Assembly: GCA_034520965.1 (NCBI GenBank)
Contig: JAXHMY010000001.1
Span: 512,001 to 576,000 of the forward strand
DNA from: Spirochaetia bacterium
GTDB lineage: Bacteria > Spirochaetota > Spirochaetia > DSM-16054 > Sediminispirochaetaceae
Length of the DNA stretch: 64,000 nt
Direction of reading: 5' to 3'
This document shows positions 169 to 19,531 of the stretch, piece by piece. The first letter of the stretch is position 1; the number at the start of each line of letters is the position of its first letter. The position numbers and the translations under genes were made by a program. Below the pieces are notes generated by a model that saw nothing but the letters and a program-made list of their open reading frames with translations, did not search any database and had not been told where the DNA came from.

Positions 169-523
169 ATTTATCCCTCTTACAATTACAACTCTATTAG
201 ATTCAATGTTTAATGCTCAAAATGTTTAACAAGTTGCTTTTAATAGTATTAAACTAAAAGGAAAAAGTCAAGTTATATCAATTTTCTAAGTTATTATATC
301 ATATAATTTTATTAAAATATATATTTTTTTTCTATAAATAAAGAAGTTGCATACGATATAATAGAACTATTTACTATTCTAAATAAGTTGCATATTGGAG
401 ATACAGGAATAGTAACAGAAGTAATGAAAGCACACGCAAAAAAGTGAAAAAAAAGAATACACTTTAGATTACAGTAGTTATTGTGCTACAATTTTTGCAA
501 TGTGGCACTTCAAGGAGGATCAA

Positions 524-1353
524 ATGAGCAACGGAAATCTACTCGGTCAAGACTGCACTTCACGGACCTATTATTACTGGGGAACAGACCTACCTGTTAA
601 AGGAGATATTGTCCTGGTTCACGGCTATGCAGAACACGCCGGAAGATATGCCGAGGCGGCAGAGCAATTGAACAGGGCAGGATTCAACGTGTGGGCTATG
701 GACCACTACGGTCACGGACTATCCGACGGCCGGAGGGCGGATGTAAAGGACTTTCGACTATATGCACAGGATTTGAAACTTTTTATACAAACTACCGTCA
801 AAGCACAGCAGCAACAGTCCCTGTTTGTGTATGGCCACAGTATGGGCGGAGCTGTCTCTCTGTTATATGCATTGGAACAACAGTCGGAACTAACCGGTCT
901 TATCTTATCCGGACCAATGGTCCGACCTGGTGCAGTGTCCAGCAAGCTCGAACGAAGGCTAGCCCATTTATTAAGAAAAATTGTACCGAACCTCCCATTT
1001 CGCCCCTTTTCCGCCGAGCTTTTATCCACGATCCTGAGGAGGTAGAGAAATATAAGCAGGATCCTCTCAATTATAACGGCAAGTTAAAGGTAAGGCTGGG
1101 CGATGAGTTCCTGCAAATGGAGGGATATCTTTCAGATATGGCTCTATCCCAACTCACCCTTCCGGTATTGCTGCTGCATGGCGGGGAGGATGCGGTAGTG
1201 CCCCCGGAAAACAGCAAGGTAGTGCTTGACCGGATAAATTCGACAGATAAAACAAGAATAGTATTTCCGGGCATGTACCACGAGATTCACAAAGAGGCTG
1301 ACCGTAAATCGGTATTCTCAACTGTCATTAAATGGCTAGAGGCCAGATGCTGA
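524..1353 (+). CDS. alpha/beta hydrolase, lysophospholipase/monoglyceride lipase family (one frameshift near 1030)
   Basis: VHGYAEH, DHYGHGLSDG and GHSMGG in ORF 500..1045; LLLHGGED and GMYHEI in ORF 691..1353; RBS AAGGAGG before ATG 524. Confidence 0.85.
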
Positions 1354-1376
1354 CGGCGATAAGGAACCAATAGATT

Positions 1377-3969
1377 TTACTTCTTTGAACTCTTTTGATT
1401 CTTTACTATTTTTCTCACTTCCTCGACCGTCAATTTGTCGATTTCTTCTTGTTCACGCTTCTCTTCGGGGAGAGATACATTTTTGGTACCGGCTTTAATG
1501 TAAGGGCCGTACTTGCCATTGTAGATGGCCAGCTTCTTGCCCAGCACCTCATCCTTTCCAAAGTCTCTCAGCACCCGTGAGTTACCTCTTCCCTTTTTCG
1601 GTGTTGCGAGTAATTTCAGAGCCTCATCCAGGGTGATGGAAAACAGCTCGTCCTCCGATTTAATGGAGCGAAACTCTCCATCATGCACCACAAAGGGGCC
1701 AAAGCGGCCTCGATTCGCGGCCACTTCCTTGCCGGTTTCCGGATGAGTCCCCAGGACCCGCGGAAGACTCAGCTGCTTTAGGGCATCTTCCAAGTTGGCT
1801 TCGCTCGGTTTAAGCCCTTTGTTGAGAGCAGCCCGTTTAGGCTTGGGATTTTCCTCGGTCACCTCTCCAAGCTGATAGTAGGGGCCGTAGCGACCGGTTA
1901 GACAATAAATAGCCTGGCCTGTCTTCGGATCATGCCCCAGGGGTTCCGGTCCGTTTTTCTGAATCTCGATTATCTCCCGCACTTCCTCTTCTGTAAGATC
2001 GGCAGGGGCAATATCCTCGGGAATCGAAGCATGAATTGGCCCGTTTTCATCATCCTTATAGACAATATACGGCCCGTATTTGCCTACTTTAATACCGTCT
2101 ACAATATTGATATGGGGCAGTTTAATGGTGCGGGTCTCATCGGGGGAAATTTCCTTCTCCCGCTGCTCTATCTTCTGCTGCAGCCCGTCCTTCCCGGAAT
2201 AAAAGGACTCCAGATATTCTAGACGGTCAACTTTTCCTATCGCGATATCATCCAGGGCAGCCTCCATAGCTGAGGTAAACCCGTACTCGATAAGATAATG
2301 AAAATGGTTTTCCAGCAGCTGTATAACTGCAAAACCGGTAAAAGTCGGCAATAGGGCGCTCCCCTGCTTGCGGACATACTCACGCTCAAATAGAGTATTT
2401 ATAATCGAGGCGTAGGTTGATGGCCGACCAATAGCCATATTCTCAAGAGCCCTTACCAAGGTAGCTTCAGTGTAACGGGCCGGAGCCTTTGTTTCGTGGT
2501 AGAGCTGCTGAATCTCAAGCAGATCAACAGTCTCCCCTTCTTCTAGGGGCGGCAGAAAGCTCTCTTTATCATCCAAGGCAGCCTCGGGGTCATCCTTACC
2601 CTCCACATACACCCGGATAAACCCGGGAAATTCTATGCGGGTACCCGTGGCGCTGCAGACCGTACGGCCGGCACTAATTTTAACTGTATTTGAAACCTTG
2701 CGAGCCTCCGCCATCTGGCTGGCAAGAGTACGCTTCCAGATTAATGCATACAGGGATTGCTCCTTCCCCGACAGACCGGTCTCATCCGGATGTTTAAATA
2801 CTTCCCCCGATGGCCGGATAGCTTCATGCGCTTCTTGCGCTGCTTTTGACTTTGTAGAATACTGGCGCGGCTGTTCAGCTAAATATTCTTCGCCGTAGAG
2901 CCGGCGTACCGCCTGTATAGCACCATTCACCCCCTCCTGGCTAAGGGCAGGAGAGTCGGTACGCATGTAGGTGATAAAGCCTTGCTCATACAGGCGCTGT
3001 GCGGTACGCATCGTCTCACGGGCGGATAAACGCAGCTTACGGTTGCCCTCCTGCTGCAAAGTTGAAGTAATAAAAGGAGGGGCAGGCCGATTTTTACTCT
3101 TTTTCTCGGTCAGCGATGAAACTTTCCACTCGGAAGCCTCGACTTCAGCTTTCAGCTCAGCCGCCGCCTTCTCGTCCAATACTACGACGTCTTTTTCAGG
3201 CAGTATTTTACCGGTCTCCGGATCAAAATCCTTTCCCGGCAACCCGCTTGCCGTCAACCGATTCCAGGGCAGCCTCAAAACTGTAGCCTGCCTCAGCACC
3301 GTTACCTTTAGCGTCCCCGCCGGCACCCTGCTTCTTCAGCTGTGCCTTCAGGTCCCAGTAGACCGATTTCTTAAATTTGATTCGCTCACGCTCACGTTCA
3401 ACAATTAAACGCAGTCCGGGGGACTGCACACGGCCAGCGGAAAGGCCGTAGGCAATTTTCTTCCAAATCAATGGAGAAAGGGTATACCCGTACAGACGGT
3501 CAAGAATACGGCGAGTTTCTTGGGCATTCACCAAATTAGTATCAATATCGCGCTCGTTTTCCAGTGCCTTTTGAATAGCTGTTTTTGTGATCTCGTGGAA
3601 CACCATCCGCTTTACCGGCACCTTCGGATCGAGCACCTTCACCAGATGCCATGAAATACTCTCCCCTTCGCGGTCTTCATCAGTTGCAAGCAGAAGCTGA
3701 TCTACATCTTTAAGCTTCTTTTTAAGCTCCCGAATGATCTTTCCCTTGCCCCGGGGTACAATATAAAGGGGCTTAAACCCGTTCTCTACATCAATACCAA
3801 GCCTGGCCCAGCCGGTCTTTTTTAGGTCCTTCGGGATATCGGACGCCGATTGCGGCAGGTCGCGGACGTGGCCTATACTCGCCTCCACGATGTAATTCTT
3901 GGGGAGAAAGCGTCTAATAGTACGCGCCTTTGTGGGCGATTCGACAATTACAAGTGCAGTGTGTTCCAT
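1377..3969 (-). CDS. topA: DNA topoisomerase I (frameshift near 3235)
   Basis: IVESPTKA Toprim motif, [24 protein letters not shown] active-site Tyr, GRPSTYAS, C-terminal GRYGPY repeats; two ORFs join at ~3235. Confidence 0.95.
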
Positions 3970-16957: not shown

Positions 16958-17626
16958 TTAGATATCTATTATTCCAAGCCTGGTAGCATAATGAACTAAC
17001 TCTGCAGCGTTTTTCACCTTAAGCTTGCGAAAAATGCTGGTACGGTGATTTTCAACCGTACGGTAACTTATATAAAGGCTTTGAGCAATTTTTTTTACCG
17101 ATAAACCCTCAGCCAAAAGGCGCATAATCTCCTGCTCCCGCGCAGTGAGGGACTCATAGTCGTTGTCCTGTACATCGTAGAATCGCTGGGGATGTTCCAG
17201 GGCCTTTTGAATTATCACCTCTAGGGTAACTTGATCAAAAAAATACTCGCCCCGCAGCACCTGCTTTATGCCGTCAATAAGGCGCACAGGTGAAGTCTCT
17301 TTGGTCATATACCCGCTCACTCCGTTACTGACCGCTTCCAGCACATAATCACTGCGGCTATACATACTAAGTATGATAATTTTGAGCAGCGGATATTGTT
17401 CACGAAGCTGAGAAACAAGCTCAACCCCTGAACCATCGGGCAGCGAAATGTCAAGAACCACCACGTCGATATCGGAATCTCTTAAGATTTCGCGGAGTTC
17501 TTCGACAGTCTCCGCCTCCCCACTAATAACAATGTCCTTATCTCGCTGCAGAGCAACTTTTACACCATCTCTTACAGGGGGGTGATCATCTACCAGTACC
17601 ACACGAATTCCACGTAGAGTAGACAT
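16958..17626 (-). CDS. NarL/FixJ-family response regulator, interrupted by a group II intron (exon 1 = ATGA at 19486-19483; exon 2 = 17613-16958; alternative intron-encoded ATG at 17626)
   Basis: VVLVDDHP, VVLDISLPDGSG receiver motifs; LuxR HTH LTAREQEIMRLLAEG...TVENHR. The spliced junction reads ATG AGT GGA ATT CGT (MSGIRVVLVDD). Confidence 0.92.
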   Translation of the reverse strand: MSTLRGIRVVLVDDHPPVRDGVKVALQRDKDIVISGEAETVEELREILRDSDIDVVVLDISLPDGSGVELVSQLREQYPLLKIIILSMYSRSDYVLEAVSNGVSGYMTKETSPVRLIDGIKQVLRGEYFFDQVTLEVIIQKALEHPQRFYDVQDNDYESLTAREQEIMRLLAEGLSVKKIAQSLYISYRTVENHRTSIFRKLKVKNAAELVHYATRLGIIDI

Positions 17627-19482
17627 ACTATCGCCTTCCTTCATTAAGGGGGTTACGATAGCATGCCCCTCCCAGAACCGTACGTGCGCAACTAACGCAT
17701 ACGGCTCCTAGCACTAAACATTCGACCATTGCCAGATGTCTTTGCAAATTCTCGGTCTTGGTATTAATTTCCATATCTTTTCAAACGTCTCCCAATTTAT
17801 CTTGTGCTTCTGACCTCTCCGCCTTAGAGCCTTATACAGCGTATATCTGATGTATTTATAGAACTTGTACAGCCCTATTAGATTTCCGTTGACCCCATAG
17901 TAATTGTAGTGCCCAACCAGTTTCCGGCTTAGTGCTCTCACAATCTCCATGACAGGTCGATGCATATTCCATCTAATCCACTGTTTTGCGCTCTCGCGTT
18001 TAGCCTTCAGCTTCTTCTTGCTAGTGAGGTGCAGAACTGTGTACTTACCAGTCCTTGTACTGGCATTCACGTGGGTGAATCCAAGAAAATCAAATGTCTC
18101 CTTGGTTCCTTTGTACCTTCCAAATGGAATGATCCTTGTCTTCTCTTCGGCCACCGTTAGCTTGAACTTTGCAAGCCTTTTAAGCATCACCTCGTAGAAT
18201 CTTTTCGCATCATCCTCGTACTGGAACAATACCACATAGTCATCCGCATAACGGTATAAGTATGCCTCACCCCTCAAACACCTTTTCACTACCTTCTCAA
18301 ACCACAAGTCGAGTACGTAATGAAGATAGACGTTAGCCAGCACCGGCGAAATAAGCCCTCCTTGCGGAGTCCCCTTGTCGCTGTCGCTGACGTTCCCATT
18401 CTCCATGATCCCCGCCTTGAGAAATCTTACTACATAACGGATGAAATTCTTGTCCTGTATATCGTTCTCAAGAAACTTCACCAGCCATTCGTGGTCGACA
18501 TTGTCAAAGAACCCTTTGATGTCGGCATCAAGAATATAATTTACCTTCTTAGTCATGATCGTTTGGTTTATCTCCCGTATCACATCATGACAATTCCGAT
18601 TCGGCCTGAACCCGTAGGAACAGTCCAGAAACCTCGGCTCGTATATCTCAGTCAGCACCTTCGCCATTATTCCCTGTACGAGTTTGTCCTCATACGCCGG
18701 GATTCCCAGCGGTCGTACCGTGCCATCCGTCTTGGGTATGTATGTTCTTCTCACCGCCTGCGGTCTGTAGCTGAAGGATTTCATCCGTCCAAGCAATGCA
18801 TCCACATGCTCTTCCAGTCCGGACTCATAGCTCTCCTTCGTCGCTCCGTCTATGCCTGCGGCTTTTCCTCTGACCTGCGCTCGATGCTCCGCCTTCAGGT
18901 TCTCCCTGTTGACGTAGTGCATGAGCGTCTGCATCTTCGCGTGACTCTCCGACAACCTCCTCAATTCCCCATAACTGTTTTCCACTCTTTCAGAACCTCC
19001 AGTGTTCCTGGTGTTGGCCACAAGAAATACGTTTAATGCCCAGACCCCTTCGCTCCACCGACTTTCACCGGTTTCATCGCTACTATGAGTCTGTCCGATT
19101 GCTGATGCCCCATACAGGTTTCTTGACTCCTCGCCTTTACGTCCCCTATTAGTCCAACGGACAGGACATCAGCCCTCCCAGGTACGCTTGATCTACCTTG
19201 TGTGCTCGCCATGCTCTCAGACCCCGTTGGGTTCTCCGCACTCTCGCCTTTTTCCGAGCGCTTCTTGCTGGTTGCTGTCACATGAAAAACATCACCACCC
19301 AATCTTTATACTAACGAGGCTCAATCACGTTCAACCTTTCGGCTTATGGCTCTCACACTCCTTTACCTACGCTTAAACCTCACCTCACGGCTTCGGCTCC
19401 AAGGCTAAGTACCGGCTGTTGGCTAGACTTTACCGGACAGGGTGTCTCACCCTGCTATATATCAAACGCCGAACTGGCGCAC
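17614..19482 (-). mobile_element. complete group II intron (1869 nt, IIB-like)
   Basis: 5' end GTGCG at 19482; domain V GAGCCGTATGCGTTAGTTGCGCACGTACGGTTC at 17707-17675; domain VI with bulged A ending CTACTCTAC at 17614; internal RT ORF; removal restores the host reading frame. Confidence 0.95.
17714..19021 (-). CDS. ltrA: group II intron reverse transcriptase/maturase, no endonuclease domain
   Basis: AAGIDG, RPLGIP, SYGFRP, DADIKGFFD, GTPQGG, RYADD and FDFLGF motifs plus thumb/X domain; ends at 435 aa with no HNH motif. Confidence 0.95.
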   Translation of the reverse strand: MANTRNTGGSERVENSYGELRRLSESHAKMQTLMHYVNRENLKAEHRAQVRGKAAGIDGATKESYESGLEEHVDALLGRMKSFSYRPQAVRRTYIPKTDGTVRPLGIPAYEDKLVQGIMAKVLTEIYEPRFLDCSYGFRPNRNCHDVIREINQTIMTKKVNYILDADIKGFFDNVDHEWLVKFLENDIQDKNFIRYVVRFLKAGIMENGNVSDSDKGTPQGGLISPVLANVYLHYVLDLWFEKVVKRCLRGEAYLYRYADDYVVLFQYEDDAKRFYEVMLKRLAKFKLTVAEEKTRIIPFGRYKGTKETFDFLGFTHVNASTRTGKYTVLHLTSKKKLKAKRESAKQWIRWNMHRPVMEIVRALSRKLVGHYNYYGVNGNLIGLYKFYKYIRYTLYKALRRRGQKHKINWETFEKIWKLIPRPRICKDIWQWSNV

Positions 19483-19531
19483 TCATGCACAAACTATATC
19501 ATATTTTTTTCTTTTATGGTTCACTATTAAT

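Follow-up and report, generated by a model that had tools for sequence, protein, structure and literature searches.

Introduction

Several kinds of described group II introns can be compared with the element studied here. The IIB1 start/stop-codon lineage (Michel et al. 2007, as reported in the excerpted text of PMC12584367) is defined by an insertion of 300-700 nt at the base of domain I, and group IIC introns are stated in the same excerpts to insert behind intrinsic terminators or attC hairpins. The accessible part of Leon et al. 2010 (PMC3001079) describes group IIC-attC introns that contain outward-oriented promoters, and introns of the B.c.I4 type carry, according to the accessible part of PMC2691827, a 53/56-nt 3' extension after domain VI. 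The present text concerns a 1,869-nt group II intron on the minus strand of a 64,000-nt stretch of DNA from a Spirochaetia bacterium of the Sediminispirochaetaceae (contig JAXHMY010000001.1 of assembly GCA_034520965.1, positions 512,001 to 576,000; hereafter the window), which interrupts a response-regulator gene directly after ATGA, i.e. after its start codon and the first base of codon 2. We propose that it is probably a mobile intron inserted at the beginning of a leaderless-type gene, from a lineage that inserts beside -10 boxes and carries a spare Shine-Dalgarno (SD) sequence and start codon.

Like the IIB1 lineage as presented in the excerpts of PMC12584367, this intron shows a site-specific association with the translation signals of housekeeping genes, here including the lepA start codon, and it does sit on initiation codons, following the ATGA of both the response-regulator gene and lepA. 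The window intron lies inside the codon region and not in intergenic DNA. Unlike that lineage as characterised there, it does not have the 300-700-nt domain I insert, the distance from the 5' splice site to the open reading frame (ORF) being 461 nt and the Rfam model aligning contiguously from 35 nt into the intron; the excerpted text mentions neither a -10 association nor an SD sequence or AUG in domain VI for the IIB1 lineage. Like group IIC introns, our intron has a reverse transcriptase (RT) without endonuclease, a very short core of intron-binding site 1 (IBS1), a generic transcription signal as its target and many colonised loci. [quoted passage not shown] Similarly to the IIC-attC introns, as far as the accessible part of PMC3001079 describes them, it would supply an expression signal to the downstream gene, theirs being a promoter and this one a ribosome-binding site and start codon in domain VI, in frame. 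As in the B.c.I4 type (accessible part of PMC2691827), there is extra sequence at the 3' end, which is placed here within distal domain VI, upstream of the branch-point A and the normal 3' strand.

A full-text literature search returned no group II intron that is promoter-proximal or -10-associated and no start codon in domain VI; Michel et al. 2007 and Simon et al. 2008 (PMC2525955) were outside its scope and may bear on novelty. The accessible part of Toro and Martinez-Abarca 2013 (PMC3552965) holds nothing on insertion sites, and the supplement of PMC5171806 covers only other intron classes.

Intron anatomy and insertion site

The features of the locus, in the order of transcription, are as follows (EBS, exon-binding site; HTH, helix-turn-helix).

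19493-19501, minus strand: putative extended -10 element TG-A-TATAGT of the response-regulator gene, read from the sequence; the hexamer (19498-19493) ends 6 nt before the ATG.
19483-19486, minus strand: ATGA, comprising the start codon (19486-19484) and base 1 of codon 2; final four bases of the 5' exon and core of IBS1, where homology between the copies begins.
17614-19482, minus strand: group II intron, 1,869 nt, from 5' GTGCG to 3' CTCTAC; RF02005 116.9 bits and RF00029 48 bits, boundaries from three genomic copies and an empty site.
19302-19314, minus strand: 13-nt unpaired internal loop UUAGUAUAAAGAU at the EBS2 position, containing AGUAUA (19312-19307); Rfam consensus structure.
19280-19285, minus strand: EBS1 UCAUGU in the terminal loop UUUCAUGU, pairing with the 5' exon GCAUGA; Rfam structure and covariation with exon ends.
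17714-19021, minus strand: reverse transcriptase/maturase, longest ORF 435 aa; Pfam RVT_1 and TIGR04416.
17675-17707, minus strand: domain V, 33 nt; RF00029 alignment.
17614-17673, minus strand: domain VI, its distal part enlarged, with an SD-like AAGGAAGG (17641-17634), an ATG (17626-17624) and the bulged branch-point A (17620); sequence and Rfam.
16958-17613, minus strand: 3' exon, the rest of the response-regulator gene (Response_reg and GerE/LuxR HTH); Pfam and orthologues in relatives.

The element has what is expected of a mobile group II intron, namely a ribozyme fold with an EBS1 loop, a domain V, a domain VI branch-point A and an RT/maturase. Domains I-IV are matched by RF02005 (19447-19212, full model 1-225) and domains V and VI by RF00029 (17709-17614), the UA bulge of which places the branch-point A at 17620, 7 nt from the 3' end of the intron. 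The IEP, encoded in domain IV, scores 370.5 bits against TIGR04416 group_II_RT_mat (cut-off 300), and RVT_1 was the only Pfam domain detected in it, with no endonuclease domain. In a comparison with the Protein Data Bank, it appeared to be about equally distant from the solved IIA, IIB and IIC RTs (E about 1e-43 for both the IIC RTs and LtrA). The intron is probably a mobile one and is active-looking.

Reading the minus strand through the 5' junction, one finds T19501, G19500 and A19499, TATAGT (19498-19493), ttgtgc (19492-19487), ATG (19486-19484), A (19483) and the GTGCG of the intron from 19482 onwards. The flanks thus run ...TG-A-TATAGT-ttgtgc-ATGA/intron/GTGGAATTCGT..., where slashes mark the splice sites, and the exons when joined begin ATG AGT GGA ATT CGT... 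and encode a NarL/LuxR-type response regulator (Pfam). The direct reading of this strand revealed no purine-rich SD sequence ahead of the host ATG. An earlier examination of the same letters without database searches (hereafter the sequence-only reading) had placed an extended -10 TG-A-TATAGT 6 nt before an ATG without SD sequence, and these positions proved to be correct. We regard the element as the promoter of the response-regulator gene because of the extended -10 itself, its spacing and its conservation in relatives. With 6 nt between the end of the hexamer and the ATG, transcription of the gene probably begins at the AUG or no more than a base or two away from it. A -10 box about 6-8 nt before the start codon, combined with the lack of an SD sequence, is the arrangement of a leaderless gene. 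As a side observation, mechanical ORF calling starts the response regulator (16958-17644, minus strand) at an ATG internal to the intron, at 17644.

Uninterrupted sites in relatives and other copies of the intron

The promoter-ATG junctions predate the insertions, because uninterrupted orthologues in relatives possess them. A genome of the same genus (G002) matches the window site in every base except for the missing intron: it has TGaTATAGT-N6-ATGAGT, its empty site reading ATGAGTGGAATT, and this uninterrupted sequence establishes both the boundaries of the intron and the prior existence of its target. In two more relatives the response-regulator site is likewise uninterrupted and reads TATAGT-N7-ATG. 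The sequence-only reading, which had compared the target with a leaderless promoter-ATG junction, is thus borne out by sites that are intact and conserved. Across 11 response-regulator orthologue loci, a -10-like hexamer stands 6-8 nt before the ATG, without SD sequence, in six, and at least two others have an ordinary SD sequence.

The host gene of a second copy, lepA, is also uninterrupted in relatives, where TATAGT lies 7-8 nt before the ATG in 9/11 loci and is accompanied, at six same-genus loci, by a TTGATG -35 element. From this arrangement lepA appears to be leaderless across this bacterial family. Taken by itself, the lepA (EF4) pattern reads TTGATG, a gap of 17-18 nt, TATAGT, N7 and ATG, with no SD sequence, in 9/11 relatives (L002, L341-L349). 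Leaderless-type starts seem to be regular in the organism of the window, judging from a genome-wide peak at spacer 6: of 94 occurrences of TATA(A/C/G)T-N6-ATG, 39 lead into an ORF of 100 codons or more, the corresponding values at the other spacers from 2 to 16 being 4-29%.

Three copies of the intron, 97-100% identical to one another, occur in this genome, all of them inserted at TATAGT-N6/7-ATGA/GTGCG, and a three-copy comparison shows that their homology begins exactly at ATGA. The host of copy C1 is the response regulator of the window, that of copy C2 is lepA (joined reading MNTPKEFIRNFCIIAHIDHGKST), and copy C3 precedes a 29-codon ORF. The closest foreign introns lie at tgaTATAGT-N6-ATGA (L005), TATAGT-N6-ATGA (L007) and tgaTATAAT-N6-ATGA (L010), the joined reading of L010 resembling what we take to be an IS200-type transposase (tnpA). 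A scan of metagenomes for near-identical introns produced only three loci, one without upstream DNA and one duplicating L007. The homing to promoter-ATG junctions that the sequence-only reading had suspected therefore holds for these introns: all six with a UCAU EBS1 that lie in host DNA with upstream sequence are found at TATA(G/A)T-N6/7-ATGA. Apart from this, copy C3 (G000:C3:55877-59458; locus L436, about 178-3762) is broken by an IS66-family element, which lies in domain I-III and is bounded by 17-bp terminal inverted repeats; in this element an internal tandem duplication of about 1.2 kb splits the transposase gene.

Recognition of the 5' exon by EBS1

The sequence-only reading had paired UCAUGU (19285-19280) with the last six bases of the 5' exon, GCAUGA. 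This pairing is well supported: the Rfam consensus structure (RF02005) places UCAUGU in the terminal hairpin loop UUUCAUGU, at EBS1, and AGUAUA unpaired in an internal loop immediately 5' of this hairpin, at the position that EBS2 has in IIB-like introns, and the EBS1 bases covary with the exon ends across relatives. Among 53 related introns, each at a distinct insertion site, 37 carry in the EBS1 hairpin an exact complement to the four bases that end the exon, as compared with 243 of 2,552 non-cognate pairs (9.5%), and several of the 16 introns missing the exact complement pair through G-U. A hand alignment of 23 sequences gave the EBS1/exon pairs UCAU/ATGA, CACC/GGTG, CCUC/GAGG, CCUU/AAGG and UAAGCG/CGCTTA, among others. 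As EBS1 pairs with AUGA, the start codon itself is read by the intron.

The two bases that follow UCAU vary, being GU in the window copy and AU in the other two genomic copies (UCAUAU). The EBS1 of the window copy pairs also with exon positions -5 and -6, and the fifth EBS1 base pairs with exon -5 at 4/5 sites of the closest introns. Exon position -5 is probably upstream of the RNA start, so that pairing at -5 would serve DNA targeting and not splicing.

Insertion sites across the lineage

Contigs from one genome per species were scanned with an intron-only DNA pattern, yielding at least 120 loci; a separate 14-nt intron pattern is too short, in that it makes chance matches in unrelated GC-rich genomes. 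The listed loci and the three own copies, with near-identical exons collapsed, amounted to 118 unique sites with at least 35 nt upstream, 86 of which share the 5'-end type of the window intron and 32 of which do not, a split that is crude, since at least two of the 32 resemble the first type.

Of the 86 listed sites, 32 have a perfect TATAAT whose end lies 10-16 nt upstream of the insertion point, against a background of 0.0006 TATAAT per position at the same loci (60-299 nt upstream, 20,001 positions). When one mismatch is allowed (A2 and T6 kept), 58 sites have such a hexamer ending 9-17 nt upstream. Its reverse complement occurs only twice in the 9-17 window. These 58 hexamers look like real promoter elements by two kinds of accompaniment: TGn precedes the hexamer in 29, and a TTGACA-like -35 stands at the 17-nt spacer in 10, compared with 0-3 at each of 11 other spacers. 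The distance from the -10 to the insertion point is not fixed: it ranges from 10 to 17 nt and varies even among introns of one EBS1 type. TATAAT was found within 30 nt in only two of the 32 listed sites with other 5' ends. If transcription is assumed to start about 7 nt past the hexamer, the transcribed 5' exon would be 4-11 nt long.

The 5' exons of the listed sites end in GAGG (17), GGTG (13), AGGT (6), AAGG (6), TGGA (5), ATGA (4) and others. These ends are mostly SD-like, which indicates that most members of the lineage sit on the SD core in a very short leader. The enrichment of both a -10 box and an ATG that the sequence-only reading proposed to test at related insertion sites must be divided: the -10 bias is strong and lineage-wide, and the ATG is largely confined to one sub-lineage, outside of which the exons end mostly in GAGG, GGTG or AGGT. 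The sub-lineage with a UCAU EBS1 lands on the ATGA of genes that read as leaderless-type.

IIC-type targeting was considered and rejected, as there is no terminator-like site at the window locus and there are no upstream stem-loops at the 86 listed sites; there, folding the upstream 45 nt gave a mean of -2.3 kcal/mol (z = -0.5 versus shuffles), with 3% of sites below -8. Separately, one intron (L306) that belongs to this Rfam family but differs in its 5' end lies directly after a perfect 18-bp hairpin, in the manner of IIC introns, which suggests that targeting habits may differ within the Rfam family.

A putative ribosome-binding site and start codon in domain VI

The distal loop of domain VI contains AAGGAAGG (17641-17634), and seven bases further on an ATG (17626-17624) stands in the 3' strand of the stem. 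From this codon, ATG TCT ACT CTA C/ reads in frame into the 3' exon at all three genomic sites, because each insertion follows ATGA. The 3' ends of the lineage were surveyed with a second intron-only pattern, which matched at 84 loci; these provided 75 unique 3' exons with a length of 90 nt or more. An SD-like motif is found 16-32 nt before the splice site in 71 of these 75, and the codon at -13 is ATG in 27, CTG in 22, TTG in 17 and another triplet in 9. In 15 of 21 ATG cases, the sole open frame (at least 90 codons) is the frame of the intron (p = 4e-4). The intron-supplied start postulated in the sequence-only reading is thus a feature of the lineage, with a significant in-frame bias, and translation of the host ORF from the domain VI AUG may be anticipated on these grounds. 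Two relatives (L010 and L020) have a plain domain VI.

Other relatives display variants of interest in their own right. The sub-lineage with a CAUA EBS1 (L012, L229 and L231) sits directly after the ...TATG of an SD-led gene, and the 3' end of L012 itself reads ...GAAAGGAG-N14-TTATG/, so that its last three bases rebuild the host ATG exactly. One Chitinispirillales assembly harbours at least seven related copies with ATG at -13 (L366, L380, L388, L392, L395, L421 and L422), in six of which the intron frame is open through all of the recovered 3' exon, suggesting a burst of insertions on start codons.

Metatranscriptome evidence

Metatranscriptome contigs 90-99% alike to the window were obtained from four runs of three studies; being contigs, they cannot show RNA 5' ends. 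In two runs of one study, the last base of the intron is joined to the first (17614/19482), the jump measuring exactly 1,869 without additional letters and with 114-122 nt on the sides of the joint, in contigs from relatives about 96% alike to the window. We interpret this junction as a full-length circle; a head-to-tail tandem is less plausible, and DNA may be present in the RNA libraries. Another run contains a relative whose 5' exon (...TATACT-N10/) and 3' exon are both different, and a joint from 17263 to 19494 seen in one run probably belongs to another organism.

The circle junction bears on whether the window copy may have ceased to splice and become a domesticated intron, i.e. a fixed 5' leader that gives the gene its SD sequence and start codon. 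Such a fate would agree with the in-frame SD sequence and AUG of domain VI, with a 4-nt 5' exon that may be too short for exon ligation and, as weak evidence, with the fact that no ligated-exon joint was seen in the RNA contigs. We nevertheless hold domestication to be very improbable for the following reasons. First, the three copies are 97-100% identical, with the RT ORF, domain V and domain VI intact. Second, the variable fifth base of EBS1 matches exon -5 at 4/5 sites. Third, the RNA libraries do contain the circle junction of the intron. Fourth, the same-genus G002 is without the intron, from which it follows that the insertion is recent.

Possible means of -10 recognition

The sequence-only reading had also suggested that AGUAUA, in the loop at the EBS2 position, reads the -10 box. 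In this explanation, the loop would base-pair with the -10 hexamer of the DNA target and EBS2 would be used in mobility only. Several of its elements are sound: the loop is unpaired and lies where EBS2 is expected, the match of five of six bases is real and can be formed at all five TATAGT sites, and most loops of the lineage contain UAUA or UUAUA, able to pair with TATA(A), reaching 7 bp in L252 and 6 bp in L274. In addition, a relative without -10 box (L035) has an 8-bp match between its loop and exon positions -15 to -8. The pairing itself did not withstand comparison, since the complementarity is what base composition would give. An internal G-G mismatch between AGUAUA and TATAGT leaves only four contiguous pairs, which is the chance level for AU-rich sequences. 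The longest Watson-Crick run between a loop and its cognate -10 region averages 4.00, versus 3.48 for shuffled loops (n = 27 sites), and pairing to cognate exons averages 4.32 versus 3.89 to non-cognate ones (n = 44 sites). The L005 intron, 95% identical and located at the same kind of site, has AUCAUA in place of AGUAUA, and the two TACAAT sites with known loops (L258 and L275) show no compensating UUGUA. ACTATA, the complement of TATAGT, occurs nowhere in the intron, the wobble matches all falling at intron positions 508-1643, within the span of the ORF, and the variable distance of 10 to 17 nt argues against a fixed loop pairing. We therefore find base pairing of this loop with the -10 box improbable.

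It is worth noting that the occupied sites of this genome are all TATAGT (3/3), whereas only 18 of its 101 TATANT-N6/7-ATGA candidates are TATAGT, an outcome with a chance of about 0.006, which makes some read-out of the hexamer likely; the two closest foreign sites are TATAGT as well. This figure also bears on the explanation that the promoter is not recognised at all, the intron inserting wherever a 4-6-nt IBS1 fits and only the copies behind strong promoters being expressed, spread and retained. IBS1 is indeed short and the insertion sites are diverse, no -10 is seen at 28/86 listed sites, and transcription is a precondition for any further spread of the intron. Yet selection for expression would permit any transcribed position, whereas the distance to the hexamer is 10-17 nt with a sharp lower edge; neutral dead-end copies should pile up elsewhere, and yet 58/86 listed sites fall in a 9-nt window; and the 3/3 occupancy of TATAGT sites would not be expected. 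For these reasons we give this explanation, too, little credence.

Our leading guess is that the -10 is sensed by the IEP or through melted promoter DNA, both of which we rank above base pairing. More specifically, targets might be found via transcription initiation, the endonuclease-less ribonucleoprotein reverse-splicing into the non-template strand exposed in open or scrunched complexes at strong extended -10 promoters. This we put forward as a speculation, possible and on the whole unlikely, which would explain the floating insertion at +4 to +11, the lack of an RNA element complementary to the -10 and the accompanying TG and -35 elements. If such melted-promoter targeting is true, the lineage would be to promoters what IIC introns are to terminators, and a retroelement that responds to the activity of a promoter and not to its sequence.

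Proposed model and its significance

We propose the following model. The intron has inserted after the fourth base (ATGA/) of the response-regulator gene, UCAU and the two variable bases of its EBS1 pairing with AUGA. As the lineage appears to insert 10-17 nt downstream of sigma-70-type -10 boxes, at about +4 to +11 of the transcript, transcription of the intron would be driven by the promoter of the host gene, and its 5' exon would comprise no more than a few bases. Domain VI, with its SD sequence and a start codon placed 13 nt ahead of the 3' splice site, would then allow in-frame translation of the host ORF from the unspliced RNA.

Several observations weigh against this model. First, a two-hexamer sigma-70 scan of the locus found no minus-strand promoter; there is no good -35 here, and such a scan is uninformative for an extended -10 promoter without -35. 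Leaderless status is likewise deduced from the spacing, the absence of an SD sequence and the conservation. Second, no ligated-exon joint was seen in the RNA contigs of relatives 90-99% alike, and DNA may contaminate the libraries. Third, the frame bias is weak for TTG (7/13) and absent for CTG (4/9), and two assemblies that are related to each other contribute eight of the ATG cases, which are therefore not fully independent. Fourth, 28/86 listed sites have no recognisable -10 at 9-17 nt, and neither the loop-pairing tests nor the search of the intron for complements identified a -10-sensing element. TATAGT is also common as such at the leaderless-type genes of the clade, which weakens the argument for a hexamer read-out. 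Fifth, 15 of the 18 TATAGT-N6/7-ATGA sites of this genome are empty, so that other determinants or a low activity must exist. Finally, a metagenome contig (L327) bears two tandem intron copies, ...CTCTAC/ATAATGA/GTGCG..., the second of which sits 7 nt into the 3' exon of the first, at an ATGA without -10 box. Having weighed these points, we still regard as probable a mobile intron at the start of a leaderless-type gene, from a lineage that inserts beside -10 boxes.

In the usual view, group II introns contain no promoter, and they do little damage because they are spliced out or lie outside genes. The lineage described here appears to solve both problems in a different way, its own transcription being guaranteed beside a -10 box with almost no 5' exon, and the host gene being given a substitute for its ribosome-binding site and start codon. 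At such loci, automated annotation likely hides the 3' end of the intron and the true start of the gene, as gene callers would pick the intron-borne ATG. If our proposal is true, -10 boxes would join terminators and attC sites as the basis of a third 'transcription-signal' mode of targeting. The proposal would also lead one to ask how a 4-nt exon can suffice for a ribozyme to splice, and would make these introns a natural tool that marks promoters and leaderless starts.

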